64,000 bases of DNA from Euglena gracilis (taxonomy: Eukaryota), in contig CP154954.1 in assembly GCA_039621445.1 (NCBI GenBank), positions 34,693,737 through 34,757,736 on the forward strand, in the 5' to 3' direction. The notes beneath the pieces were generated by a model that saw nothing but the letters and a program-made list of their open reading frames with translations, searched no databases and was not told the DNA's origin. Every line of letters starts with the position of its first letter. Position 1 is the first letter of the stretch. The position numbers and the translations under genes are program-made. Positions 1-47,500 of the stretch are shown here, piece by piece.

Positions 1-189
1 TCGTTGGACACGGGGGATACCCTTTGAATAAAAATACATATATAATTTAAATATATATAACTTGTCATGTCTATATTGGTTAAAATACCTTCTTTACATC
101 GAAGAATTCACCCCATTTGCAAACGCCCTCGCTATCCTTTGATACCTTTTCTCATATTTATCAAATTTCTGGAAAATGTTGTGTCCCCT

Positions 190-2546
190 GAACAATGCAT
201 CTGCAGAGAACGTTGGATGGGGGATGTTCATCTTTGGTATTTCAATCAACAAATATTGTGTGTGGTGTTTGGCCCACCGAGAAGTGAGTTTTTTTTGTTT
301 GGCCCGCCACGAGTTTTTTGTGAGGGATTCAATGTAATATTCGTTTAAATCCGGTTTTTTTTGGGCTTTTGTAGATCATTATGCGAAATGACTTCTAGGG
401 TCAAAAAAATATTTGGCGAATTCGGTGCAGTTGAAATGTTTCTTTGGCAATATGCCACAGGGTGGGGGTGTGACCCACCTTCACCAAAAGGGTCAACCCC
501 CCATTTTTCTCCCACCCTCCTCGTGGGGGGGGGGGGAGGAATAACCAACCACCCCAGCCCAAGCGGGGGTTAACAAGAGGTGTTTGGATTGTAAATGGGG
601 GGTTTAATCAGTGGCAGCAAAGCTATGCCTGATACAGAGGGGTGGAGCAGACTCAGAGACTGAAAATATCGGGGTGACTTCCCCATTGGGGTCCGGGCCA
701 CCTGGCTGGAACTTGGTCTGAAAGTTAAAATGGGGTCCAGTGCTCAAATTGCAACCAAACACACAATTGGCCACACCCACCATGGTGATGCAGTTCCCAT
801 ACAGCAGAAGCTCTGCCAGGGTGTTGTTGTGCCGCAGAGCGTAATGCCGGAGCAATGACAAAGATCTGTGTGGTTTCATGGAACCCCCAGAATAAGAACA
901 CCCAATAAAAAACCAAAAGAATCAAACCTCAAAATGTCAGCCCCCCCCCAAATAAGACCCCCTGGCGGGTAGAAATCATTGTGCAGTGTCAAATACACTG
1001 CACACTGACCTATGCACAGTGCAACTGAATCGCATCAACTGAATGTCAGGCCTCTGAGGGCTGGAAATTTCACCCCCCCCAAAAAATATCTAGCACCCGT
1101 CCACTCAAATGGAGAGGCAGCGGGAATGGAATGTGAAAGACAAAGAGGGTGAGGGCCGTTGGTGTCTCGTGCCCCGCATGTGACAGCGCCAAGGCCCCAT
1201 CGTCGGCGATGCGGTTCACGTTCAAATCAAATTCAGGGCCGCATGAACGCGGGCGATTCGGACTCGACAATGGACCTCAATCTGCCAGCGCCTGTCCGTC
1301 TCAACCAGGGGTTTTTGTTAAGACCGGTCAGGGTGGGGGGAGGGGGTCCCCCCACCCACTCACCCCCTGGCCCCCCCGGGGGGGGGGGGGGCGGGGGACG
1401 CACAAAAAAATGGCCGAAAATCGCGAAGTGCTAAAAAAGCACCTTTTCAAAAATTTTCGGCGCCTTCGAAAAGCATCCCACCCCCCTCCAGGAGGACCCC
1501 CAGGGGGTGGGTGGGTCCCCCCTGACCCACTCACCCTCCCCCCCCTCTGGGGGTCCACGACTGAAAAAAATCCTGGTCCCAACCCCACCTGTGGCTTCCT
1601 CGTCCATTGTTGGGCCACCTCTGTGTGCACAGGCTCTCGGCAAGCATCCCCCACAACCACTCAACTCCAAACCATCTCAGGGGTGGGGCGGAACATTCTC
1701 CCTTCCAAAAGTGCTTTCTTTTGGGCCACTCAATCAATCCCATGGGTATCAACTGAGCCCACATACTCCGTCCACTTAACTGCCCAACAAACTCCCATAA
1801 GCCACGTCACTCACCCACAGACCGCTATGAGGCACTGCCAAGCACCTGTGGTCATCCAGAATCCCAGGCACGCCCAGCCATTCCATAGGTACTGGGAATA
1901 CCACCCCAGCGCTGGGACCACCCCGAAGCATTGGACCACTTTCCGCTTGACCATTGAACACCAGGGACAGGGGGGCATTGAATGTACTGAAAATCTGACG
2001 GGCAAGCCCTGGGGGAGGGTCTGCAGGTATCGGTTGCTCTTCAGCATCTCCGCAATGTGCTTTGCCCCTTCGGGGCCAATGTTGTTGCCGCTCAGCCCCA
2101 GCGACGCCACCCGGGTGGGGAGAGGGCCCCGCCGGGATGCCCACCCGGGCTGCGGCGGTGCAGCGACAGGTGGGGGTGGCGTGCAAAGTGGAGTGCTGCG
2201 CAACGTGTGCGTTGTGTTATTATTCCAAATACATTTTTTTGCTTTGTTCAAAAAAAATTCTGTGGAGCGCCAGTCGTATTCACACACACAAACATACATT
2301 TGCACATATAAATATATTACATACATAAAACGTCCACACATGTATTGGATCACATGGCAACGCTGTCAAAAAGTGGACAGAGTTGGGGGAGGGTGAATGG
2401 AGGGCGGGGCCCTCGGCGTCATCCTGCAGCGCGGTGCACAAATGCTCCAGATCGGCGTCGGAGAGCTCGGCGTTGCTCAGGTCGACATGGTCGGTCCGGC
2501 CGTCGGCGATGTCGCGCAGGGCGTCCTCGATGGAGTGGCAGGCCAT
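190..2546 (-). CDS. RNI-like leucine-rich-repeat protein, 3'-partial; exons 2418-2546, 2015-2116, 1180-1228, 773-842, 383-396, about 190-211
   Basis: Manual splicing gives MACHSIEDALRDIADGRTDHVDLSNAELSDADLEHLCTA-LQDDTRVASLGLSGNNIGPEGAKHIAEM-LKSNRYLQTLDLNVNRIADDGALALSHA-LRHNNTLAELLLYGNCITMVGVEVISRS-LQMHCS, i.e. three consecutive 28-aa RNI-type LRR units in register. All five introns are non-GT-AG. The last two exons are less certain. Confidence 0.88.
843..1179 (-). other. Nonconventional intron 3 of the LRR gene
   Basis: TCAC|atg CGGGGCA...TGCTCCG gcatt|AC. 7-bp stem with one G-U pair; splicing restores SHALRHN. Confidence 0.75.
1229..2014 (-). other. Nonconventional intron 2 of the LRR gene
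   Basis: CTC|ccc CAGGGC...GCCCTG aattt|GAT. CAG at +4..+6 and CTG at -8..-6; splicing restores LQTL-DLNVN. Confidence 0.88.
1306..1575. mobile_element. hAT-like MITE nested in LRR intron 2
   Basis: Ends CAGGGGTTTTT / AAAAATCCTG; flanks GTCTCAAC / GTCCCAAC (7/8 TSD match); related to the copy at 23243-23493. Confidence 0.7.
2117..2417 (-). other. Nonconventional stem-ended intron 1 of the LRR gene
   Basis: Sense strand GAC|gcc GAGGGCCCCGCC...GGCGGGGCCCTC tcccc|ACC. Perfect 12-bp inverted repeat (2122-2133 / 2403-2414), 3-nt and 5-nt overhangs; splicing restores QDD-TRV. Confidence 0.85.
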
Positions 2547-4283: not shown

Positions 4284-4680
4284 CAGGGTTCGATATAAGG
4301 ACAGGTGGGGGGGGTGGTCCGGACCCCCCCCCTGCGGGCCAGGAGGGGGGGGGGTGGGGGGGACACCCCCCCCCCACCTAAACAGGTGCGCGGTCAGGGT
4401 GGCCGAAAATTTTTGACCCCCCAAAACGACCAAAAGTGCCATTTTGGGCACTTTTTGGGCAAAAATGTGCCAAAAATGCAAAAAATTTTCGGCGCGAAGC
4501 GCCGGAGGAAAAAATTGGCCCTTTTTGGGGGGGGGTCAATTTTTGCCCCCGAGGGTCGGTCCGGACCCCCCTTGCAGGTGGGGGGGGGTGGTCCGGACCC
4601 CCCCTGCGGGCCACGCGGGGGGGGGGGGGGGGGGACACCCCCCACCTAAACCATGTACGCTCTCCTTAAATCGAACCCTG
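4284..4680. mobile_element. hAT-like MITE (family A)
   Basis: TIR CAGGGTTCGATATAAGGA / TCCTTAAATCGAACCCTG; perfect 8-bp TSD CTCTTGGT (4276-4283, 4681-4688); internally duplicated G-rich GGTCCGGACCCCC blocks. Confidence 0.92.
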
Positions 4681-8200: not shown

Positions 8201-8776
8201 TTTTCGACCTATTTTGCCAACTTTTTTTTTGGTCAAGAATCAGCCATCGTCCAGCTGCTCAAAGAGCAGCTGAATTAGAATTGAAGTGCAAGCCCCCCCT
8301 GTGGGCACTGTGACTGTTTTTTTTGGTGCCTTTTATCCCTTCTTCTGGCCTGGCGCTGTTGTTCGTCTCTGGCCCTTTTTGTCTGTGTACGTGGAGGTGG
8401 CTGAATGAAGTGCAAGCCCCCCCCCCCGGGGGGGCGTGAACTTCCTTAAAAAGAAGCTTGAACGCGACTTTGCCTTCATTTCCGAAACTTTGCTTTTCTG
8501 ATAAAACACCGCCAATTACCAATCCAGCTTCTCTCCCATCCACAGAGGGGCGCATGTGCAACATGCACACCTGGTCGTCCTCGGTCGTCAGGAAAATGGT
8601 GTGCAGCGCCGCATTGGCTCGCCGCAACTCTTCGGCACTACGCATATACGCCTCGAACGGGAGGAACCCCATCTCCGTCTTGCGGCACTGCTCCCGGTGG
8701 TAGCACGCCACCTTGCCGGCGGGCTGCTGTATGTATGGCGACTGCGCGCGCGTGTGTGTGTGTATGTGTGGGTGTT

Positions 8777-8836
<60 letters not shown>

Positions 8837-11800
8837 GGGCGACTGTGGGGGTGGGGGGGTAGGCGGGCAGGTTTGAGAAATGCTGGCTGTCAATGAGAGG
8901 CTGGCATCCCAACCAGAAAGGGAGAGAATTGAAACTACTTTGTGGGGGCAGCTGGATCTGACGTTGGCCAACTTGCCCAGGATAACAACTACCCCATTAA
9001 AATCACAGGCATTCTGCCAGAAACAGGTTGCCCAAACCTGCCTTCCAATATTGGATTATTCCCTGTCAAAAAAAACACCAGAAGGAGGGGGTGCAGGTTT
9101 GCATTCTCCGGGAGGACCCTTCGCAGAAAGGGCTTCACCTGGAGTGCCAAACAGCAGAGGTGGAGCCAGGGCCCGGCTGTCACTGCGACGGACGTGCATG
9201 CCTATCACGCCGGCGGCGGGGAGGCGGCCACCAAGGACCACTTCCTGCGAGAGGGGCCAGCAGATGCACCGCCAGAAGAAAGCAAAGGCGGGCTGCAAAA
9301 AAAAACAGAAACAATGACACGGGCGCAGGCGCTGTTTCGGGTTATATTAATGCACTGCATCCGACAGCTCTGCCGGTGTGCATGGCTCGAAGCAAGCAAC
9401 AGGCTCAGCACAATGCGGTAAGGGGCAATTCAGCAGCAGACAGACAGACAGACAGACAGGCAGGCAGGCAGGTAGACAGGCAGACAGGCAGGCAGGCAGG
9501 CAGACAGACAGACAGATAGATAGCAGTCCAGGTCATCTGCAGTATCTCTTGTTGGCATCTCTCCCTGGACAAAACCTTAAATAGCAGACCTTATCTGCAA
9601 CTCTGAGAAATCAGCAATCTCAACTGAGTGGTGTGAGGAAGGGAGGAGTAAGAACCCGGAAAATTGGTTTGAGTTGTAATTTTTCAGCACTGGTTTTTGA
9701 TGGTGGTGGCATTTGGCGGGTATTTTTGAGAACTGGCAAAAAACGCAACAACAGAACACAAAGCAAAGCCATTTCACCTGTTTGTACTTCTCAATGTCAG
9801 CACCAAACCATGGCTGCAGCCCCCGCCAGAAATATCTCGCACACTGCGCGTACCACCACCCCAGGGGGTGGGCAGACCATCGTGTGGGTATGGGAAGGGG
9901 CCGCCCGTTTAAATGGAATCAAAGGTGCAGAGAACTGACGCAATGTGCAAATATGCGTTTGATTTTGGGAGAAGCCTTCCGGTGTGAAACAAATCACCAG
10001 GGGGGAATTGCAACAGCCTCAACATAAGCAGTGCAAAAACACAAAAGAATGCAAATTGCATGTAAATTTCAATTTCTTTAGGACGTCTTCTGAACGTTTT
10101 TGAAAACGTTCAACTCTTCCAGGATGGTTGGTTGTTTATATTTTGCGTCATAATTTCCTGTGCAAATACGGTTCATATTTTGAACAATCATTCGCATTTT
10201 TTTGAGATCAGAAAACATAAAGATGATCAGAACAGTGCTTTGCACAAATTCTCAAAGAAAAATCCAAAAAAGGTCAAAAAATTACACAAGAGAAAAAAGA
10301 GGCGCAGACTTTTGCATTGACAGGGTCAATTGCCTATAACGCACACTTCCATTCCATGATACAATAATCTTTCGTTGCATACGTGTATGTTTTGTATGGG
10401 GATTCTTGCAGAAGAACAATTGCCTTATAAAAAAAAATTCAAAAAAGTCAAAAAAAGGGCATACAAAATTCCAAAAAGTAAACTTTCCCATATTCTCAAA
10501 GATGCGAATTTTGTGAAAATGCAAATTTTCAATATTTTGGACAATTCCAAAATTGCAAATAATGCAACAATTTGCTCCTCCCACCCCCACCCACCTGTTG
10601 GGCCATGCCAAAAAAACCATACTGGAAAAAGCAGCAAGGTCATATTTTTTGTTCATCATTCCATCATCCGCACATGATGCAACTTTGCTTTTCAACTGGC
10701 AGTGCACCTACCAATAGCCTACTAATACCCAATGCTGTTCTTCTGGTAGGTTCAAATTGAGAAGATGCCAGAAGAACTCTAAGCACCAAATGAATAATCA
10801 CACAGCTCACTTTTTGGTGAACAAATTGCAAAATGCAAAAAAAGATGAACACTCAGTGTGCTCACTGACAAAGCCAAAAAGGGAGACCAGTTGGGCTCAG
10901 ATACAATGGCAAATTCCGCACCTTATGCGCCTGGCACAATCTCCACCAGAGACGGATGGCACGACTTTGCTGTGTGTCGTTTTCAACACATTTTTTGTCA
11001 AGAGGGAATTCAGTAGGGGGATCCAAATTTTGTAGGTGGTAGCTGACCCCAGGCTCATAGCTCACCCAGCCTGTGGGGTATGGTGATGGCGGCAAATGTC
11101 CCCAAACGTTCTCAGACACACTCAAACGTACTCAGACGTACTCAAGCGTATTCAAACATACTCAAACACACTCAAAAGTGCTCAAACGTAGCCAAAGGTA
11201 AACAAACGTTCTGGCATACCCCTGCCCCACACAGCAGCCAGCTCTGCCATAGCGCGCCACAGAAAATTGAAAATTGGGCCTGGGAGGGCAAAATTTTGCA
11301 ATTCCTGGCCACTCCTATATGCCAAGCCAAACCAAGTCCAGGCAAAAGGGGCTGGGTTGGGGTAATCTGGGACACCACGTTGGAAATACACAATGGCAAC
11401 CCCTGTCAACACAGGCAAAATGGGCAGTGAGCCAAAACGGTGACCCAAAATTGCCAAAGACGTTCACTTTGTTCAAGTCACTGCCCTCTTGGCCTGCTGG
11501 TGCCTGGGCTGGGTGTGGCTTAGTATACAGGAGGGCCAAGAATCACCAATTTTGGCCTTCCCAAGCCCGGTTTCAATTTTCCAGAGCGCGCTGCAACAGA
11601 TCTGGCTGGGGCACTGCTGCGCGGGTCCATCACACCATCGCACACCCCACAGGTTGGGGTGATGTCCCGAGGTGGCAACTCAGAGCATTCCTTGCTGGCA
11701 AGGCCAGCGTCGCTCCTCTAGCCTTATCCGTGCCTGATCGGTGGCCTCGGGTGGTTGGGCAGCAGACCCTGCTGAGAGGGTCACTGGGCACAGGGCTGGG

Positions 11801-20145: not shown

Positions 20146-22789
20146 TTACTTCTTCTTCTTTGGCAGCGAACTGACCTTATCCTCCCTCGCCACAGCGGCC
20201 CAATACCAGCCCTCCTGTTCCTGTTTCAGCCGCTCCATCTTGGCTTCCGCATCCTGGATGGCTGCAGCACTGCTGAGAAAACCTTCAGAACCGTCCCCTC
20301 TAAAAAAAAATGAAAACATCACTTTGTTGCTATTGTGCAAAAAAAAAACGACAGCAAGAGCACGCTTCGAAAGAGATATGGAAAGAATCTCTAACCATGA
20401 AAAAAGAATAACAAAAAGGCGAGAGACAAGCATATTCAAGACTCATCCCCCTAAACTGTTCTGTTGTCCAGTCAAGGAGGTTGGCCCCATAAGATCCGCC
20501 AGGCTTCAAAAGCTGCCGGATATGCTCTGGAGAACCGAGCAGCGACCGCAGCAGCGCTGGGCGGCGTTGAGGGGGGTCAGCTGCTCCCGCATGCGCTCAA
20601 TCTTTTCTTTCAGTTCGACAATCTCCTGCGGAGCAAGACGGGCTATCGACGAAGATATTGTGGCAGGACGCCAGGGTGGGGGGACCCACAACAGCTCACT
20701 GGAACAACAATGACAGATGGGTGTTGGATCAGGTCATTCGCAGGCACGCCAATGGAACAGGAAAGACGGTCCGGTCTGCGCCGCCCCCCCCCCCCATCCC
20801 GGGCGGGCGACCGCCAATCCCCACCTTTTCGTTCTTCTTCTTGTACGTGATCGGGGTCGCCCCCCTCAGCTTCTCCAGCTGGGCGGCGAGCGCCTCCCGC
20901 TGGGCCTCCAACTTGGTCGTCTTCTTACCCTCCGCCTCCGCATCCTTGATGGCCTTCTCTGCCTTCTTCAGCTGCGGAGGGGAAAGGCGAGGCTGGCCCC
21001 GGCGACAGGCGGGGGGGGGGGGGGCTCGGCGGCTTTGGGAGGTCGCCGCGCAGCCGGGCCGCGGGTGGAGGGGAGTGGGATGGGGAGAGCGCTGCCAAAC
21101 CACCACCCCGCGTGTGTCCTTCCGGGGATCAGGGGGAGGGCTATTTGGGGTTGGGCCGGGACGGTTTTCCGACGGGGGGGAGTTGTCGGCTTGGGGGTCG
21201 CGGAGTTGGCATCACAAAGAGAAATGCACATTTCTGCCACCTCCCCATTTGCCCTCCCACATTGGGCCAACCACCAAACTCTGGATCCTGCAACCCACTG
21301 AGGCAACCTCCATTCTTCACTAAGAGAATGTTGGGAATGTTGAAAAGCTTCAATCAGCCGCTTTTGATGGATGAAAAAGCAGACTTCCTCGGCCCCTTGC
21401 ATCCAACTCTTTGATGACACCAGGGGCAAGAGATTTTGGCTGGTCGCTGGGGGAGGAGCAGCAGCGGGGGTACAGGTGCCCCACGATGCAGCTGGGCCAA
21501 AGTTGGGGCTGACTGCAACACCCCCCCCCCCCGTGGTGGGGCTGAAAAGGATCTTTCATGAAAAAGGAAAGTCAAGGGGTGTGGTCGAAATCCAGTGCAC
21601 GCAGGTTTGCGCAATTGAAAGAGACCTTTTCCGTCAGCTCCGTCAAGAGGAGGGCCGCCTCGGCCTTGCTCACCTTCCCCGAATCCAGAAGCACTGCGGC
21701 AAAAACAGTTTGCAATGCTGCAACGCAGCAAACACACCACAAAACAAAGATTTTCTGAAGGAACCAGAGGGGACAGCCGGCCAACTGAAGAAGGTGCAGG
21801 ACCAAAAAAAAGGGTGATGGCAGCCAGGGTTGTGTAAGCTGGGGAGTCCACTAGAGCATTTGGGCTGGCTGGACGAGACGCGCATCCCCTCCCGGGGCCG
21901 GGCCACCGATCAATCCTGCCAGCCTGACCGCCGGGCGAATTCGAAAACCGGCCCGTCCGGAGTCACCCGAACAGGTCGGGAGGGCCAAACCCCTTGTGGG
22001 GGCGGCCCGTTCGGCGGCCTTTATCTTTTTCCCCCTGCCTGTCTTCCGCCTTTGGGAATCGCGCCGGTCGAGGCCCCGGGAGGGGATGCGCGTCGCACGT
22101 GCAGGCGAACCCCCGGCGGACCGGTCCTCACCCTAACCCTACCCGTGCCCAACCCGGTGGGAAGTTTAATACCCCCCTGGGGTATTAAGCTTCCCACCTG
22201 CCATATATATGTATATATACATACATACATACATATATGTATATATACATGCATACATACATACATGCATGCATGCATGCATGCATGCATGCATGCATGC
22301 ATGCATGTATGTATGTATGTGAGTGTGTGTGTGTATGTATGTATGTATGTATGTATGTAGGTATGTATGTATGTATGTATGTATGTATGTATGTATGTAT
22401 GTATGTATGTATGTATGTATGTATGTATGTATGTATGTATGTATGTATGTATGTATGTATGTATGTATGTATGTATGTATGTATGTATGTATGTATGTAT
22501 GCATGTATGTTTGTTTGTATGTATGTATGTATGTATGTATGCATGTATGTATGTATGTATGTATGTATGTATGCATGAATGTATGTATATATATGTGTGT
22601 GTGTATATGTGTATATATATGCATATATATACATATATATATATGTTTATATACATGTATATGTATGTATATATACATATATACACACACATATATATGT
22701 ATACATACATACATACATACATACATACATACATACATACATACATACATACATACATACATACATACATACATACATACATACATACA

Positions 22790-22820
<31 letters not shown>

Positions 22821-25800
22821 GCATATATAGGGGGTACGGGGGCAAAATGTAAAAAAAAGTTTTTTTTGTGGGGTTGGGGGTGGGGTCAGAAACCCTCCCA
22901 ACACGTTCTTTTCCGTTGTTTCCTTTTCTTGCGGGGGGGGGGGTGAAAAATCAAAATAAAATTCCTCCTCTTCTGGGCATTAATGTGGGGGCAGTGGGGA
23001 GGGTTGTGAGGGGTCAACCCGTAAAATATTTTATCCTGTTTTTTTTCATACGTGCCTGCACACAAAATTGGTTGCCTCTGTGGAGCCTCTGGTAAACAAA
23101 AGTCAGGATTTCACATTTGCTCGGAGCTGGGGGGGGGGTAGCATTTTGGTCCTGTTGCCACCGAGGAGGGAGATGAGACACACATTGGCAGAGGCAAAGA
23201 AAAAAAGAAGAAAACGTTGTAGCAAGGGACAAGATCATGACGCAGAGGTTTTTTTTAAGACTGGGGGGAGGGGGCCTGGGGGGGTCAGGGGGGCCCCGGG
23301 GGACCCACCAACATTTCCCCGAAAATGGCCAAAAATCGCAAAGAAAAAAGTGCCAAAGAAAGCACCTTTTTCAAAAATTTTCGGCGCCTTTGGCGCCAAA
23401 AAGTACATTCCCCCGGGGGGGGGGGGGGCTCGGCCGCACCCACCTACCCTACGCCCCCTCCCCCGGGGTCCAAGACAAAAAAAAAAGCCCTTGTTATGAT
23501 GAGAATATGGCTGCACAGCCTGGCCACTCTGTGGGCAGGACTGCAATGACGCACCTTGCACTTGCTTGGTCAGGTCGTCCACCTTCTCAGCCTTCCCCAG
23601 AGCAGACTGACGACTGCCCCCCCCCCCACTTCAGCCTGCCCTGCCCATGGCCACCTGCCCCTCATACAGCTCCTGTTCCTCGGCCGTCAACGGCTACCCC
23701 CCGGCTCCTTTGCGGCCAGGCACAGTTGGGAACAGGGGTTATCTGAAGGACCCGGGGGGGGGGGTCCTGTGGGCCGGCTGGAAAAGGGTGCTGGCTGGAA
23801 AAAAAAGTGTTGACCGGACCCCCTCCACTGGGGGTGAGGGTCCATGGGGTGGGGTGGGGGTTCCGGCCGGCTGGGAGCCGGACCCAGCGCGTACGCAAAG
23901 AAAGAAAGCCCGAATGCAGCCAGGTTGGCATTGTTCAGTCAAAATTTGGAGACCCAAAAAAAGGACACCAAAAACGCCTTTTTTTGGCGAATTTGGAAAT
24001 TTTGGGCGCTTTGGGCTTTTGGAAATTTTGGAAATTTGGGCTACGCTGGGCGGGCTTACCTGAACTTTGTTTCAGCGGAACCGGGGGGGGGGGTCTGCAT
24101 CCAAGCTGGGAGGTGCTGGCTGGAAAAAAGGTGCTGGTTGGCTGGTCCCCCCCAGGGGGTAGGGTCCCCTCCACCTGAAGAAAACCGGTTGGGAACGCGG
24201 TGGGTGGAGGTTGGGCGGGGTCCCCCAGGCCAACCTTGGGCCATCCTACCTCCCCCCCCCCCGACGACAGGGAATGGCCCCGGCCCCGTCAGTGGGGCCA
24301 CCCCTCGCAAAGCAGCCGGGCTGCAGGGCGGCCATGCGCTGCTCGAACTCTTCGAAGCGGCCCTGGACGCCCTTCATCGCCTTCAGCAGGCAGCGCTTCT
24401 GAGGACGACCCGGGGGGGGGGGGGAGGCGGCCCAAAGGGTTCGGTCGGGGCCGTCCGTCAACCCCCAGTGGTGGGGGTTCGCCCCGCCAAGGTGCATATC
24501 CCGGCGGGGTTTTAGGGGGATAACTGCTGGGGTTGTTTCCGACTGGTGACTGACTGAGAGTGGTGGGTAATCTCAATTCAGGTGTTCTTCCTTGAGACAA
24601 AACCAATTGAGATCAAATGTACGTTTGCATACATAAATAATATAAAAAATATTATTGTAATAAAATTACAATAACAATAACAATATATGATAAAAACACA
24701 TAATTTTGAATAGCAATAATAATATTTTTAATATATAATAAAGACCGAAGGAATGAGAGAAAAAAACCAAAATTTTGGGCGAGGCAGCCGAATTTTGAGC
24801 CCATCCTTGCCCAAATGTTCGCACGTCCCCCCCCCCCCCAATTGACCGATTGGTTTCCAGTTTTGGGGTCAAATCATGGTTTCCCATGGGGCCATGTAAG
24901 GGGAACAGGTTGTACTGCCATTTGGGGCCCTCTTCCACCCCTCCAAAACTGTCGATATCTGGATTGTTTTTTGACATCCGCATGTTTTTCACACCCGTAG
25001 GCACTAATCCGGCCGGCACATCAAAATAGCTATCCCTCCACCAAGCCAAAAAAAAATCTGCTACCAGCCAGTCGTCCTTCAGCGACCGGATCCAAAGGAA
25101 AGTCAGTGAGGACAAATGAAGGGTTAAAAAATACCCCCCCAATTGCACCCCCCCCCCCAATTGTCCCTGGGCCCCACCAACGGAAGGTTGTTTGCCTTGG
25201 CCGTGCCCTGACTTTTCCCTTGGTGCCCCATGACTGTCCCCCCCCCTTGATTGTGTGTTTGGGGGGACCGGGAAGCAGGTCGACCGAACAAGAACTGTGA
25301 TCTTCCTCCTGTGATGGCAATTGGCCGTTGATGTGAGGGGAAAAAACTGGCACTGGAATTCGTAAAACTTGTTAATGTGTGTGAAACCCAGAATAATTGT
25401 GTGTAGTGCAAGGATCCATACCACATAACTTCGACTGAGATTAAGCGGCAATCCCACAGACGAAATGCACAATAGAAGTGGTCACGCAATAGACCTGCGT
25501 GAAGGTGGGGCACTTCTGCTTCACAAGGTCCTTGAAGGTTTCCATTTCGCACAGCGTGCACTTGATCTCGGGGGGCATGTCATCCACTCGATACCCTGCA
25601 ACAGAAACATCAAAAAAAAATTCCACAAGGGTTTGTTGGGTAATTTTCAACCTGCGTTGTGCCCCAGGGGCGACGGCCCCCACTGAAAAAGTGGCCTGGC
25701 CGACTTATGTCCCCACCCCCCTTACCACCCCAAAATTCAATTTGGTTCATTTAAATCCATTATGAACATTTTCCAGTGCAAAAGCCTTGGAGGGCGTGGG

Positions 25801-28800: not shown

Positions 28801-30900
28801 GCCCAAACACTATGTGTCCCGGGCTTGCCCCCTCCACCTTCGCCTGCCAGGAGAGGAGGGTGGGGGCCAATCTGTTTCCTGACTAGTCTAAGACACTCCC
28901 ATCCCATAAAACCTGGCCATAGAAATGAAGGTGAAATCTTTTCACCTCTCGGCACAGAAATCTCTCCACACACTTTGCACATTGCATATTTTTCATGCAT
29001 TGAACCATCTTCAAAAGCAGTTATTTGCACAAGGGATTTGGGCTGTATAAGAAAGGAAGGTAGGTTTGAAGGTATGAAATAAAGCACAGCTTGGGCTAAA
29101 ACAAAAATTGTCGACTAAGAAGGCACGAAGGCGAAGGCAGTGGTGGTCCGGACCAAAACATTACTTGCTGTCGCTTTCTACTGGCAAAAAAATCGGTGTT
29201 GGTCAATTCTTTGGCAACCTGCCACGTCCGGTCCCCCCCCCCCCGGGGCGGTAACTCTGGCCACTCTGATCATCTGTTAAGATCATTGAAAATGCCGAGA
29301 AGGCGGAGGCCGGTGACTGCAAGAGCCAGGGGTCAACTCAGCGGCAGGCACCTATGGTCACTTCCCATTTTGGTGCTCTGGTCGGCCCTGGTCGGCCCTG
29401 GTCGGCCCTGGTCGGCCCTGGTCGGCCCTGGTCGGCAAATAGTCGGCCATAGGTGGGGGTATCCGTCACAGAAAAAAAGATTGGGAAAAATGACCCAAAA
29501 TTACCAAAAGGGCGTAAAATGGCCAAAATGCCATAAAATATGCTCATATTGACCCAAATTAACCCAATATTTGCCAAATCAGTGGCAAATGGCCCCCAAG
29601 TTAGCAAAAACTGATCCGTATTGGCCAAAATGGGTGTAAAACTGGAGATTTGTGGGGAAATTATCCAAAAATGGGTTGAGTTCTTCAAAATATACAATAT
29701 ACTGGCACAAAATGCTCAAAAATGGTCAAATTGGACCAAAAAGAGACCAAAAAAATGGGCAAAATAACAAAAAAAGGTCGAAAATGGCTTTAAATGGTCA
29801 AAAATGGCCCCAGAGCAGGACAAAATGGCCCAACATTACAAGAAGTGCGCAAAAAGTGGCCAAAAATGGTCAAAATAGGTCGAAATTGGTGAATTATGGT
29901 GACAAATGGGCCAAAAGGGGACAAAAGCGACCTAAAATGGCCAAAAGCGGCCAAAAGTAGCCAAAAGTGACAACACATGAGCCAGACGAGCCAGAAAAAT
30001 CTCAAAATCTGGGATAAAATTCCTCATTCTCACTGAAAAAAATGACATCAATCAGAAAAAAAGTTGCGCGGTCGGCTGCGGTCGGCTGCGGTCGGCTGCG
30101 GTCGGCAACCCACCTATGACAGTCCTGAAACCCGTGGTAACCCGCGGTCGATGCTGCCGGGCCAGCATCGTCCTGCATCGCCCAGCACCGTCCAGCATCA
30201 TCAGAGGTACTTGGTCCAGAGGGAAAGCTGCCGAATTCCTTCATCCATTCCCCTTCGGTCGGCCAATCACATGCAAGTCGGCCCTGGTCGGCCCTGGTCG
30301 GCCCTGGTCGGCCCTGGTCGGCCCTGGTCGGCCCTGGTCGGAACCCCCACCTACGGGGGTCCTGAAAATCATAGTCGGCCCTGGTCGGCCCTGGTCGGCC
30401 CTGTCGGCCCTGGTCGGCCATAGGTGCCTGCTCAGCGGGACCAAAAAAAATTCCGAAAAAAACAACAAAAAAGGAAAAAGAAGAAAAACTCCTCCAGCTG
30501 CCTTCGGGCAGACACGCAGGAGGTTCAAGGAGACCGTGTGAAACCCTCCAAATATCGCATTGAGAACCCTTCAAGTGATGAGGCTCGTCGCCGGGGTTAA
30601 GGCAGGGGAGGGGGCCAGTCGTACACACACACACAAAAAATGCCCATTCTGTGCACCTGGTGTATTGATGCCTGCCTTGGCAGTGTGCCCCCACGCCCCC
30701 ACGTGTCAGATTTTGGTGCATGGCCCCAAGAAATCCGCCTGGGAGTGATGCCCCGTCACACACCGGAACATCTTCGGGCAGGGGATGGGGTTCTTGAACG
30801 CCTCCGCCGCCAGCTCGTCGCAGTCATCAGGGCCGAAGCCGTCCAGGTCGTACTCCTCTGTGTCCGCCGCCAGCAGGATCTGCTTCGCCAAGGCGGCCAT
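20146..30900 (-). CDS. Hypothetical protein with C-terminal coiled coil; exons 30764-30900, 28617-28668, 28373-28456, 26211-26316, 25495-25595, 24323-24398, 23655-23695, 23555-23606, 21626-21693, 20825-20971, 20563-20625, 20146-20259
   Basis: Exons splice in frame: MAALAKQILLAADTEEYDLDGF...KMFRVTFVVGGGKKVRQKYSPDLPKFLSDALRAVGYEEDKGAAVSLDSQGKFKYQHDTGKDLKYIHVFP...EKLKKAEKAIKDAEAEGKK...EQEGWYW...KKKK*. Eight GT-AG and three nonconventional introns. Confidence 0.85.
20260..20562 (-). other. Nonconventional intron
   Basis: GCC|gcc CAGCGCTGCTG...CAGCAGTGCTG cagcc|ATC; 11-bp stem with CAG/CTG at the consensus positions. Confidence 0.82.
22200..22830. repeat. Compound microsatellite (CATG)n / (TATG)n / (CATA)n
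   Basis: Direct reading; source of the spurious MYVC/IHTY ORFs. Confidence 0.97.
23243..23493. mobile_element. hAT-like MITE related to 1306-1575
   Basis: CAGAGGTTTTTTTTAAGAC...AAAAGCCCTTG; flanks TCATGACG / TTATGATG (6/8, both differences are transitions). Confidence 0.7.
23696..24322 (-). other. Nonconventional intron
   Basis: CTGC|agc CCGGCTGCTTTGCG...CGCAAAGGAGCCGG ggggt|AG; splicing restores AL-QPLTAEEQ. Confidence 0.8.
23733..24187. mobile_element. hAT-like MITE (GCTGG-repeat family B)
   Basis: Perfect 8-bp TSD GTTGGGAA (23725-23732, 24188-24195); begins CAGGGG; repeated GCTGGCTGGAAAAA motifs. Confidence 0.85.
28457..28616 (-). other. Nonconventional intron
   Basis: CCA|tgc CATGCTTCC...GGAGCATG caccc|GAC; splicing restores YSP-DLPK. 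Confidence 0.78.
29345..30430. mobile_element. hAT-like non-autonomous element, 1.09 kb, with (GGTCGGCCCT)n subterminal arrays
   Basis: TIR CAGGCACCTATGG / CCATAGGTGCCTG; perfect TSD CTCAGCGG (29337-29344, 30431-30438); decamer arrays at about 29380-29435, 30277-30340 and 30373-30420. Confidence 0.92.
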
Positions 30901-43136: not shown

Positions 43137-44512
43137 TGCATGAAAAATAATGGCAGGATCCTGACAAGCAGTTTTGGTGAGATGATGCCATATAAAAAAC
43201 TTCCATAATTCAAAACTTGAAACTGGTCACACATCATCAAATCAGGGAATTTCTTCAGGCCCGGGGGGAGGGGACAGAAGAAAGAGGACACACCCCCTGG
43301 ACCGGGTAAGGTCCACATTCACAAAAAAACAACATTTTTGAACATTTTTTTGCCACTTTTCCATTTGTGCCAAAAAAAACTGGATCAGTGGGCTGTGCCG
43401 CCTTGCTGGGCTTAACATTTGGGGGTGCTATATTTGCGCAAAAAGGGTTTGTGCTGCGCTCTGTGAACTTTCACCGCATTGGTCTGTGGCAGGTGGAATT
43501 TGACCAACCCTGTGAGGGGGGTCTCAGGGTGCCCTAGAAAGCTGGGCAGTCAGGCACGCCCCCGGATGTCTGCCTGGTTGTGGGCCCAAAAATGTCCAAA
43601 CGAAGGGCTTTCTGGGCATACAGCATTTCGGCTCTGGAAATGCCTTGGCTGAGTGCCCAGGCACCTTGTGCCCTACCCCTCCCCCAGGGCGTACGGGAAG
43701 GCCTGGTGGGGGGTTGTTAGACCCCCCCACCTGGGAGGTGGGGGGTCGACCCCCACCCGGTACCCGCTCAGAGAAAATTTCTTCGGCGCCGAAGACGCTA
43801 AGGTAAATTTGACCCCGGAAATACGGGAAGGCCTGGTGGGGGGGGGTCGACCCCCCCCCCCACCACCTATCGACTTGCAGGGATTCCCATTCGGCCCTGC
43901 CCCCTGCTGTTTTGTGACAATTTTTGCAAGTTTTGTAACTGTCCTTATCAAAAAAAAATTGGTTGCTGAAAAATGCGCACCCGAGCACTTATTGGGGGGG
44001 GGTCATGAATAGCTAAATCAGACCCTGGGGGAGGCTTTGTATTTGGAAAGCTCTGCATTTAGGGGGGCTTCATATTTGGATGGGTTTTACCACCCACAGA
44101 TTGGCATCTCTTTGTTGCGTGTTGGCAAATCCATCAGCAAATGGCAGCATACACCATGCAAAACCCAAAAATATCCATTTGCAAACCACAGAAAAACCAT
44201 GTGAAGCAGCACATGAAATAGCACTTGATCAGTTACAGCAAAGAGAAGCGTCGGTGTCTGCACCCAAATCTCCCCACGTGCTACAGCAGCAGGAACATTT
44301 CCGACCGCAGTTTCCTGGCAGCAAGCAATACGCAGAGAACAGAATGCGGCAAATGCAGTTTTGTGAGGCGTAGCTTCAAAAAAAATTACTGAGTCAAAAA
44401 TAACGCAAATCTGAAACCTCAATTTTTTTGTATTTCCAAATTTGTTGCTCACAGTGGGACCATAGCTTCCTAATATCAAAGAGTGAGAGGGCGGATAAGA
44501 AGACTGTTCCAC

Positions 44513-47500
44513 CTGTGCATCCGCCGCTGTACCAGCTGCCTTTCCCGCAAAGCAGGAGATGCATGTGAAGCGTGCCGAGAAATTCAGCCGGTGGCACTGT
44601 GGACAAATCCAGTCTCCTGAGAACAGGACAAAGAGGTGGGAAACATCACAAGGACCCTCAAAAAAATGAAAAAAATTGCTCAATTTTGTGCATTTTTTGA
44701 AGTCCATTTAACCAATTAATAAGATTCGAAAAATATGATCACTCACTGAGAGTTAGGGTCACAGGTGGGGTGCTTGAGTTCTTTTCTGTTTATAATATGA
44801 TCGAAGCTAAGCACCAGGGAAAGGGGGTGCCCAACCCCCCACCTCGGGGTACGTTGGAAGAACGGGGTACGTTGGGATCACCACCAGGACCCCAGCCAGA
44901 CATTATCAAGGTCTTTAAAACACATTATTAAAAACCTTAAAATGCCTTAAAATATCTTAAAATGCCTCAAAAATTCGGCCTGGGGAAAAATGAAGTCACA
45001 AACAGGTCATTGCTCAAGCACCCCGGGGGGTCCACTGGCTAGCCATTTTGCCAGGCACACTGGAAAAATGGACCAACTAGACCCCCCCCCTCCCACTGGG
45101 GACGGGAGGATCAGGGGTCCCCCGACTGGAAAAAAAAATCCTCCAGTGCTGCGCGCCGAGATGGAAATGAGGCTTTTTTAACGGGCTTTTTGGCTGATTT
45201 TGTCAAAAAAAACCGAAAAAATGGCCAAAAAAATGGGGACTTTGGGTCATTTTTTGGGGGGGTACCAGAAAAAAATTCTCGCTTCACGCCGGTCACTGGG
45301 AAAAATTTCCCACTCACTAGCCCGGCTAGCGGACCCCCCCCCCACTGGCTAACCCTGACCCAAAAATCAAAGCATGTGTCTTTCAACATTTTTGATTCCT
45401 GACCTGCACCGACATTAGTTTAATACCCGGACTCCCCTTGGACCGCTCCGGAAAAACGGTGCGTGAAAATGCCTGAAAATTTGAAAGGAAAAAAATTGCA
45501 AAAAAATATGACCCCTGACCCCTGACCCCAGACCGTTTTCCAACCCCCCCAAACAAGCAACGGGACCCCGGCTCTCAGAAACATCTGTGTTTGACCCCCA
45601 ACTCCCTGCCAGGCCGGAGTTGTTCAGCCGACAAGGGGTCCAAACTGGGCAGCACCAAACGCCCCATTTTCGATGCTATTTTTGCCGAGCTGAGCTTTGG
45701 GTCAACAAAGTTCCAAAACATCTGGAGAAAACAGATTTTTTTAAAATAAATTTAAAAAATAAATTCTTTTTAAAAAAGCCTGTAAAGGCGAAATATACCC
45801 TCTATCTCCCCCAAATGCAATACGCCATATGCCTGCACCCTCACCTGTGTTGCAGCTCGTTTTTGAAGTCCAAAATGACCATTTTGGACCTTTTTTCAGG
45901 TTACTCAATGGAGGTCAAAAAAGCTTTCAAAATATCTGGCAAGTTCACAAATCAAAATCAAAGCATCTTAGGTACGGGACGATAGAATCCTGGTGCTGGC
46001 CGTTCCCCAATCAAACCCTGGTTCGATTTGGTTTTGTTGGTGTTGGTCATTTTGAGGGGAGGTATTCCATTTTGCCAAATTTTCTTCAAAGGTTTTATTT
46101 TAAAATTTTCCGATTTATTCCAGAATATGTTGAATGGACTTGGTATTTTTGAAGTATGTTTGGAAAACTGTGAGCATGCAAATGCATTCTTGGGTTTCCC
46201 AGCCCCACCAGTCACCTTGCTCACCTTGCTCACAACTCCATTGGAATATACAATATCGTTCATTATCTGATTCGTCCTCTTCAACCTACATCCGCATCTG
46301 ACACAGGTTTGACTGAGAAAAGAGGTGAAAGAAATGCCAATGGTCCACAAAAGGCTGCAACTCACCTTGCTTTGTTTTATTCTGGCTTTCCTATTGTGGT
46401 TACTCCGGTTTATTCACAACCAGAATATTTGCTGTCGAAAAATTGAAATCGAAAAATCAAATATATTTTTAAAGAAAATGTCCTGGGAGCAGAATACATC
46501 CAATATAAAGGCAGGTGGACCCCCTCTATTTGGGGGGGGGGGGGCACAACCTGCATAAACAGTGGCGTGGTCTGGGTGACCAATTTCAGCTTGGCGCAAA
46601 GAGTCGGGATGAAAATTTTGCCTCCCAAAAATGGCCGAAAATGCCATTTTGGGCACTTTTTGGGCAAGAATTTATGAAACATGTATAAAAAAGCAAAGCA
46701 TCAGAAAGAAAATTCTGACCTTTGGGGGGTCCCGGGTACCCCCCCTGGGTTGGCCCAGACAGGCCTTGGCAGGTGGGGGGGAGTCCTCTACCAGACCCCT
46801 CCGGCAGAGGAGGGGGGGGAACACCACCCCACCGAACACCTGGAAGCGACTTCTGTTGTGGAGATAAATCTGCTGGTCGAAACTGTTTACACTCGACGCA
46901 CTGGAATTTGGTGGCAAAGTTGATAACTGAGGGGAAAATGGGAAAATACGCCACACCCACGCCAGCAGGAAAAAACTGCAACCATTTTTTCTGCTTTGAA
47001 GGAAGGTTCGCCGCCAGAAGAACAAAACATAAGAGCTGGACATTTGAAGAAAAAAATGCACATTCAATGAATCAAAAAAAAACAAGCAAGAACATTACTT
47101 ACTTACACACAAAAACTATCACATGTGGTTAGTGGTCCTTGATCCATATCCCCTGATTGCGTTTGTTATGGCCCACAAATCTGTTGCTTGAAAATGCATT
47201 TGAAATAAGTGGTGTGTACTCTCATAAAAAAAAAACACACCGGAACAAGAAGGGCAGACCCAATCCCCCGATTCCAAAGCGTCATCCAGCTGCGGGTTCA
47301 TTTCCTTGCAGCGCCGACAGCTGGCCCTGCAGGTTTGGAGTGGGCATCACAGCAATCAAAGCACGACAATCAAAAGAAGGCAAAAGCAAAGCAGGCCTGG
47401 AGGAGGAGCACCTTTTGCGGAAGTTGCGCTCACCACATTTGCATGCCCAGTCTCCTTTTGGTAGTTCCACGTCGGGCCTGTAAATGCACACAATAGAATA

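Follow-up and report, generated by a model that had tools for sequence, protein, structure and literature searches.

The probable 5′ portion of a nuclear gene encoding a small RNI-like LRR protein, apparently split by three Euglena-type nonconventional introns

How are the exons of a gene to be delimited when the sequences between them lack GT-AG ends, and how far can a splicing rule be trusted to do it? The question is raised by the minus strand at the beginning of the window (the whole stretch of 64,000 nucleotides that was analysed), where a sequence-only reading had proposed a leucine-rich repeat (LRR) gene containing five consecutive introns, all of them non-GT-AG, had removed these by a rule that leaves overhangs of 3 and 5 nucleotides (nt), and had taken the resulting 28-residue register of the protein as independent support for the rule. 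The intron coordinates and ends that it gave are accurate, and none of the five intervals is bounded by GT and AG (terminal bases of the first three in Table 1; GG..CT for the fourth and AT..AC for the fifth). With a probability that we put at about 0.75, the locus holds the 5′ portion of a nuclear gene that encodes a small RNI-like LRR protein and is split by three introns of the nonconventional Euglena type. To judge by the spacing, motifs, and lengths of these introns, the genome would be of a euglenid type. The window itself, with a GC content of 42-59% in 2-kb windows and no match to Rfam over its whole length, looks like a eukaryotic nuclear region.

Table 1. Features of the LRR gene and of the region following exon D (positions in the window; exons and introns listed in the direction of transcription)
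Feature	Positions	Strand	Description
Exon A	2418-2546	-	ATG (2546-2544) and first LRR unit, 43 codons; inside open frame 2283-2723
Intron 1	2117-2417	-	301 nt, GC..CC; 12-bp perfect end stem, GAG/CTC; downstream exon begins with A
Exon B	2015-2116	-	102 nt, second LRR unit
Intron 2	1229-2014	-	786 nt, CC..TT; N3-CAG (2011-2009) ... CTG (1236-1234)-N5, then G
Exon C	1180-1228	-	49 nt, first part of third LRR unit
Intron 3	843-1179	-	337 nt, AT..TT; N3-CGG (1176-1174) ... CCG (850-848)-N5, then A
Exon D	775-842	-	last part of unit 3, then 15 residues that open unit 4; 3′ boundary uncertain, 773-780
Candidate conventional 5′ splice sites of a fourth intron	772-780	-	GT at 780, 776 (GTGTG, 776-772) and 774
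Region after exon D	1-771	-	proposed intron 4 (772-397), 14-nt micro-exon (396-383), intron 5 (382-212) and tail (211 to about 134); all unsupported

Between positions 775 and 2546 the minus strand holds four GC3-rich exons (A-D) of an RNI-like LRR protein, with a GC3 of 99/116 (85%). Joined at junctions 1-3, these exons give an open frame of 348 nt, the product of which is divided into units of exactly 28 residues (residues 18-45, 46-73, and 74-101), with 15 residues of a fourth after them; these are the three exact units that had been reported for the gene, and they appear once introns 1-3 are removed. The product shares the 28-residue period and the LxxLxLxxNxI...G...L pattern with RNI-like or RanGAP-type LRR proteins (Pfam LRR_6, PF13516), and tandem units of 28-29 residues with conserved L, N, I, and G positions are present in it as three of exactly 28 residues and a partial fourth. 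LRR_6 matches exon B alone with 19.7 bits (E 8e-4) against a cut-off of 23.4, which two of the homologues introduced below exceed (P0010 with 33.0 bits and P0019 with 28.5 bits). Upstream of the ATG by 24 nt, an AG at 2571-2572 on the minus strand follows a pyrimidine-rich tract and is a possible spliced-leader acceptor; outrons with C-rich tracts have been described (Gao et al., 2024; PMC11170887).

The periodicity of the joined product can be compared with proteins whose frames run across the same positions. Exact-word protein searches with exon A, at near lengths and at longer lengths, gave 15 and 14 candidates and none at E<=0.001; HMMER with exon A alone retrieved 18 proteins at E<=0.001, among which P0010, P0015, and P0016 have the same N-terminus, and three more, P0019, P0025, and P0026, were among the 30 matches at E<=1e-5 of a profile word search. 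These six homologues, used for collinearity, come from ENA or JGI contigs of 858 nt to 2.38 Mb. By tblastn, the region of exon A is 56% identical to residues 1-43 of P0010, its ATG being aligned with the N-terminal Met of P0010 and P0016, exon B is 53-59% identical to P0019, P0010, P0016, P0025, and P0026, and exon D 59-70% identical to P0019, P0010, and P0026. For exon C, the tblastn matches (1228-1136) diverge past 1181, and the frame that reads through its boundary (1070-1276) terminates in a stop.

The joined exons A-D align with P0010 over 116 residues, 70 of them identical, without a gap (60% identity), and with P0019 over 116 residues, again with 70 identities and with one gap in the N-terminal region, outside the junctions. 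The remaining alignments contain 54 identities among 97 residues (P0016), 54 among 93 (P0015), and 46 among 81 (P0025), all ungapped, and 47 among 80 with one gap outside the junctions (P0026). Translated singly, exons A, B, and C fit the homologues end to end, neither lacking nor adding a residue at junctions 1 and 2; for junction 3 collinearity is read from the alignment of the joined product, in which the split codon encodes His and the homologues show His or Gln. The homologues are LRR proteins too, which makes their collinearity not fully independent of the 28-residue periodicity, yet it is the stronger evidence. The claim that periodicity backs the splice rule holds for junctions 1-3, where six homologues reinforce it, and fails for the fourth and fifth introns, which are taken up further below. 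The frames of the homologues end at differing junction positions, those of P0015 and P0016 at junction 3 and those of P0010 and P0026 at junction 4, with that of P0026 also ending at junction 1 and that of P0019 at none. This pattern suggests that relatives may differ in which introns they carry, a variation already reported for nonconventional introns.

The nonconventional (NC) introns of Euglena are described as following a code, 5′-N3-CDG...CH'G-N5-6|R with further pairing, which was derived from knock-in mutagenesis (Nomura et al., 2025; PMC12501133). In the same account, the signature of the code is found in 61.2% of E. agilis NC introns, NC introns make up 71.8% of all introns of that species, and mutagenesis of one test intron showed C(+4) and G(-6) to be critical. 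The bases CA/TG at +4,+5 and -7,-6 had been described earlier (Milanowski et al., 2014; PMC3935182). For E. gracilis, an NC consensus of CCAGG/CCTG and a conventional GT-AG consensus of GTGTG are given, together with a catalogue of 28,337 introns in which 16,151 (about 57%) are NC introns averaging about 517-539 nt (Gao et al., 2024; PMC11170887). The 3/5-overhang rule on which the sequence-only reading had built its gene model is this already published code and is not new. Introns 2 (CAG/CTG|G) and 3 (CGG/CCG|A) match it exactly and intron 1 shares the 3/5 spacing but has GAG/CTC; the proposed introns 4 and 5 do not conform to it. The first base of the downstream exon is a purine in all three cases (A, G, and A).

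The pairing of the intron ends can be ranked against every donor and acceptor around each gap. The stem arms of intron 1 (2414-2403 and 2133-2122) leave its first 3 nt and its last 5 nt unpaired and form a perfect inverted repeat (I20), the longest 3/5-spaced stem among 4,200 donor/acceptor pairs; the minimum free energy (MFE) fold of this intron contains the 12-bp end stem, with a z of -5.6. Intron 2 agrees with the E. gracilis CCAGG/CCTG consensus, and its pair, with a 7-bp stem, is the best of 8 signature-compliant pairs among 3,850 enumerated; the pair of intron 3, with a 7-bp stem including one G-U, is the best of 5 such pairs among 3,750. The boundaries are closely fixed, since intron 2 cannot slide at all and introns 1 and 3 can slide by a single nucleotide, in intron 1 without change to the mRNA. 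Folded whole, each of the three introns shows its end stem in the MFE structure, and in introns 1 and 2 exactly 3 and 5 terminal bases are left unpaired. In intron 3 the spacers AUG and GCAUU can pair with each other, and the predicted stem would reach the first intron base, unlike those of introns 1 and 2. If raw stem length is made the measure and G-U is allowed, the pair of intron 2 falls behind two stems of 9 and 8 bp that are rich in A/U and G-U, and that of intron 3 behind two 8-bp stems; these higher-ranking stems count against a purely structural reading of the code. All three chosen pairs have a nucleotide offset of 0, as only about 1 in 70 of the grid pairs does, and the junctions of introns 1-3 are more than chance.

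If the conventional spliceosome removed the three introns, at GC-AG or GT-AG sites close by such as 2417-2150, 2024-1263, and 1184-866, it would have candidates to draw on, as the three gaps contain eight open in-frame GT/GC-AG alternatives. None of the GT/GC-AG pairs in the gaps lies at the collinear offset: each of the eight adds 5-15 codons absent from all six homologues and breaks the 28-residue register, and in place of the GTGTG consensus their donors show GC or a poor GTCACA. We consider this explanation very improbable. Because all eight alternatives add codons that the homologues lack, the assignment of introns 1-3 as non-GT-AG is robust at the sequence level.

In the mechanism that would best describe these junctions, the two ends of each intron pair in the pre-mRNA, which would be cut and religated 3 nt ahead of the 5′ arm and 5 nt past the 3′ arm, with a purine following. 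Introns 2 and 3 follow the published code, and intron 1 shares their geometry, with a stem that is long and perfect and a GAG/CTC motif. Although it lacks the C(+4)/G(-6) bases, intron 1 may be spliced exactly at 2417/2117; in that case a 12-bp perfect stem at the 3/5 geometry can substitute for CDG/CH'G, and the code would be read as structure, not as sequence, a reading that we hold to be rather doubtful. The perfect inverted ends of intron 1 could mark a recently inserted element that turned into an intron, a reading drawn because the homologues have uninterrupted frames at positions 1 and 2. As a repeat family, introns 1-3 have no copies elsewhere in the window save for G/C-rich pieces of intron 2. 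These pieces (e.g., 4324-4378 and 23322-23390) are short recurrences of a palindromic element rich in G/C homopolymers that lies within intron 2 (about 1329-1557), contains several overlapping inverted repeats (I1, I4, I5, and I14), and looks like a MITE-like or low-complexity insertion.

The same inverted ends bear on another explanation, in which this is an unexpressed copy of the gene, in decay or truncated, and what look like introns are insertions bearing inverted ends. A perfect 12-bp inverted terminus of transposon-like form, as in intron 1, and the lack of a downstream exon in the last 772 nt are what such a copy would leave. Against it, the open frame is kept with 85% GC3 and 60% identity to P0010 without indels, the boundaries of the inserts fall exactly where the splicing code restores both frame and register, and no further copies of the introns occur in the window; decay is an unlikely account of the locus, to which we grant somewhat more weight than to conventional splicing.

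How the gene continues after exon D is the point at which the original model loses its support. That model, with five NC introns and a 14-nt micro-exon, had led to a stop near position 134 and a protein of 146 residues. Its path is in frame, the fourth 28-residue unit that it completes has I, S, and L at LRR positions 19, 20, and 23, and introns 4 and 5 each show 3 bp of pairing at +4..+6 and -8..-6. The pairing is limited to those 3 bp, the motifs CAA/TTG and ATG/CAT are outside the published signature, and the MFE folds of the two introns contain no end-joining stem. From donors at 785-765, signature-compliant paths number zero with a single intron and zero with two. Under the relaxed rule, 379 paths with one intron and 133,029 with two lead away from the end of exon D; 15 of the former and 5,324 of the latter pass the LRR test, which asks for an open unit of 28 residues that is hydrophobic at positions 19 and 23.

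The proposed coding tail is likewise unlike the rest of the gene. Its GC3 is 11/31 against the 99/116 of exons A-D, and exon-like GC3 is found in no frame of 1-772. After a conserved VVG, P0019 and P0025 share a conserved continuation of 53 residues (mutual score 163), to which nothing alike was found by tblastn or alignment in any frame of 1-772; aligned with the continuation of P0019, the tail scores 16, a value equalled or exceeded by 385 of 500 shuffles. We take introns 4 and 5, like the micro-exon, to be artefacts of a rule so loose that chance can satisfy it, and the complete five-intron model has hardly any probability left. What stands of the five consecutive non-GT-AG introns is the first three.

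The description of the gene as having only non-GT-AG introns lacks support at this same place, where GT donors, including GTGTG, the E. gracilis consensus, sit exactly where the homologue frames of P0010 and P0026 break off. These two frames diverge right after the conserved VVG, a break that fits an intron at the same position in the relatives. A fourth intron, probably of the conventional GT kind, would start right after exon D, and the rest of the exons would lie beyond the window start. Several AG acceptors follow exon D, for example at 201, and none of them opens into a homologue-like exon. Two further joins were tried and rejected, a signature-compliant intron at 743-183 (CTG/CAG, 6-bp stem) and a conventional intron at 776-201; the tail of each is not homologue-like and has a low GC3 by eye. 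It is most likely that the gene runs off the window edge and that 1-771 is intron sequence.

Elsewhere in the window, open segments that are rich in GC3 and exon-like occur at 8547-8756, 20765-21127, 24276-24509, 25480-25581, and 30724-30900, all on the minus strand like the LRR gene. An ORF at 44090-44707, also on the minus strand, has a CxxC...CxxC segment that matches the RanBP-type zinc ribbon (PF00641) with 18.9 bits (E 9e-4), below the cut-off of 27; this was the one match, sub-threshold, in a Pfam search of six other candidate exons or ORFs, and none was significant. The simple repeats include a (GT)42 microsatellite at 8752-8835 and a tandem array of CAGA/GCAGGCAG type at 9433-9520.

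The kind of gene and the kind of intron described here are already known, and the locus is an ordinary example of known biology that matters little past annotation. Three NC introns in a row are to be expected, because NC introns account for 71.8% of E. agilis introns and for about 57% of those catalogued in E. gracilis. What the locus does illustrate is that exon junctions of such genomes can be recovered without RNA when the published N3/N5 code is combined with homologue collinearity, and that a relaxed rule of 3-bp pairing over-predicts badly. Moreover, intron 1 is a clean candidate for the question whether stem length compensates for a missing CDG/CH'G.

Introns that lack GT-AG ends and whose own ends pair are known outside the euglenids as well, both in Amoebophrya and in hemistasiid diplonemids (PMC7789003; PMC12621601), and an origin of introns 1-3 in one of these types could be considered on that ground. 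The introner elements of Amoebophrya are described as non-GT-AG, with terminal inverted repeats of 8-20 nt, a range that includes the 12 bp of intron 1, and with direct repeats of 3-5 nt across their borders and average lengths of 120-240 nt (PMC7789003). Here the introns are 301-786 nt long, are not repeated in the window, and can slide by only 1, 0, and 1 nt, an overlap that leaves no border direct repeats and speaks against these elements; the gene density is also much lower. The introns of hemistasiids share with those described here the variable terminal dinucleotides and the strong pairing between intron ends, but their medians of 37 and 91 nt are far shorter, and the account of them that we cite describes no CAG/CTG code with 3/5 spacing (PMC12621601). 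Given that CAG/CTG and CGG/CCG at fixed 3/5 spacers before a purine are the Euglena code, an assignment to either of these types and not to euglenids is very improbable. From the NC introns of Euglena, the present ones differ in the GAG/CTC of intron 1, which stands in place of CDG/CH'G, and in that their splicing is deduced from sequence. In all else that was compared they agree: introns 1-3 have no GT-AG ends, they have pairing ends with a 3-nt spacer on the 5′ side and a 5-nt spacer on the 3′ side and a purine downstream, their lengths are within the range of Euglena NC introns, and intron positions vary between homologues.
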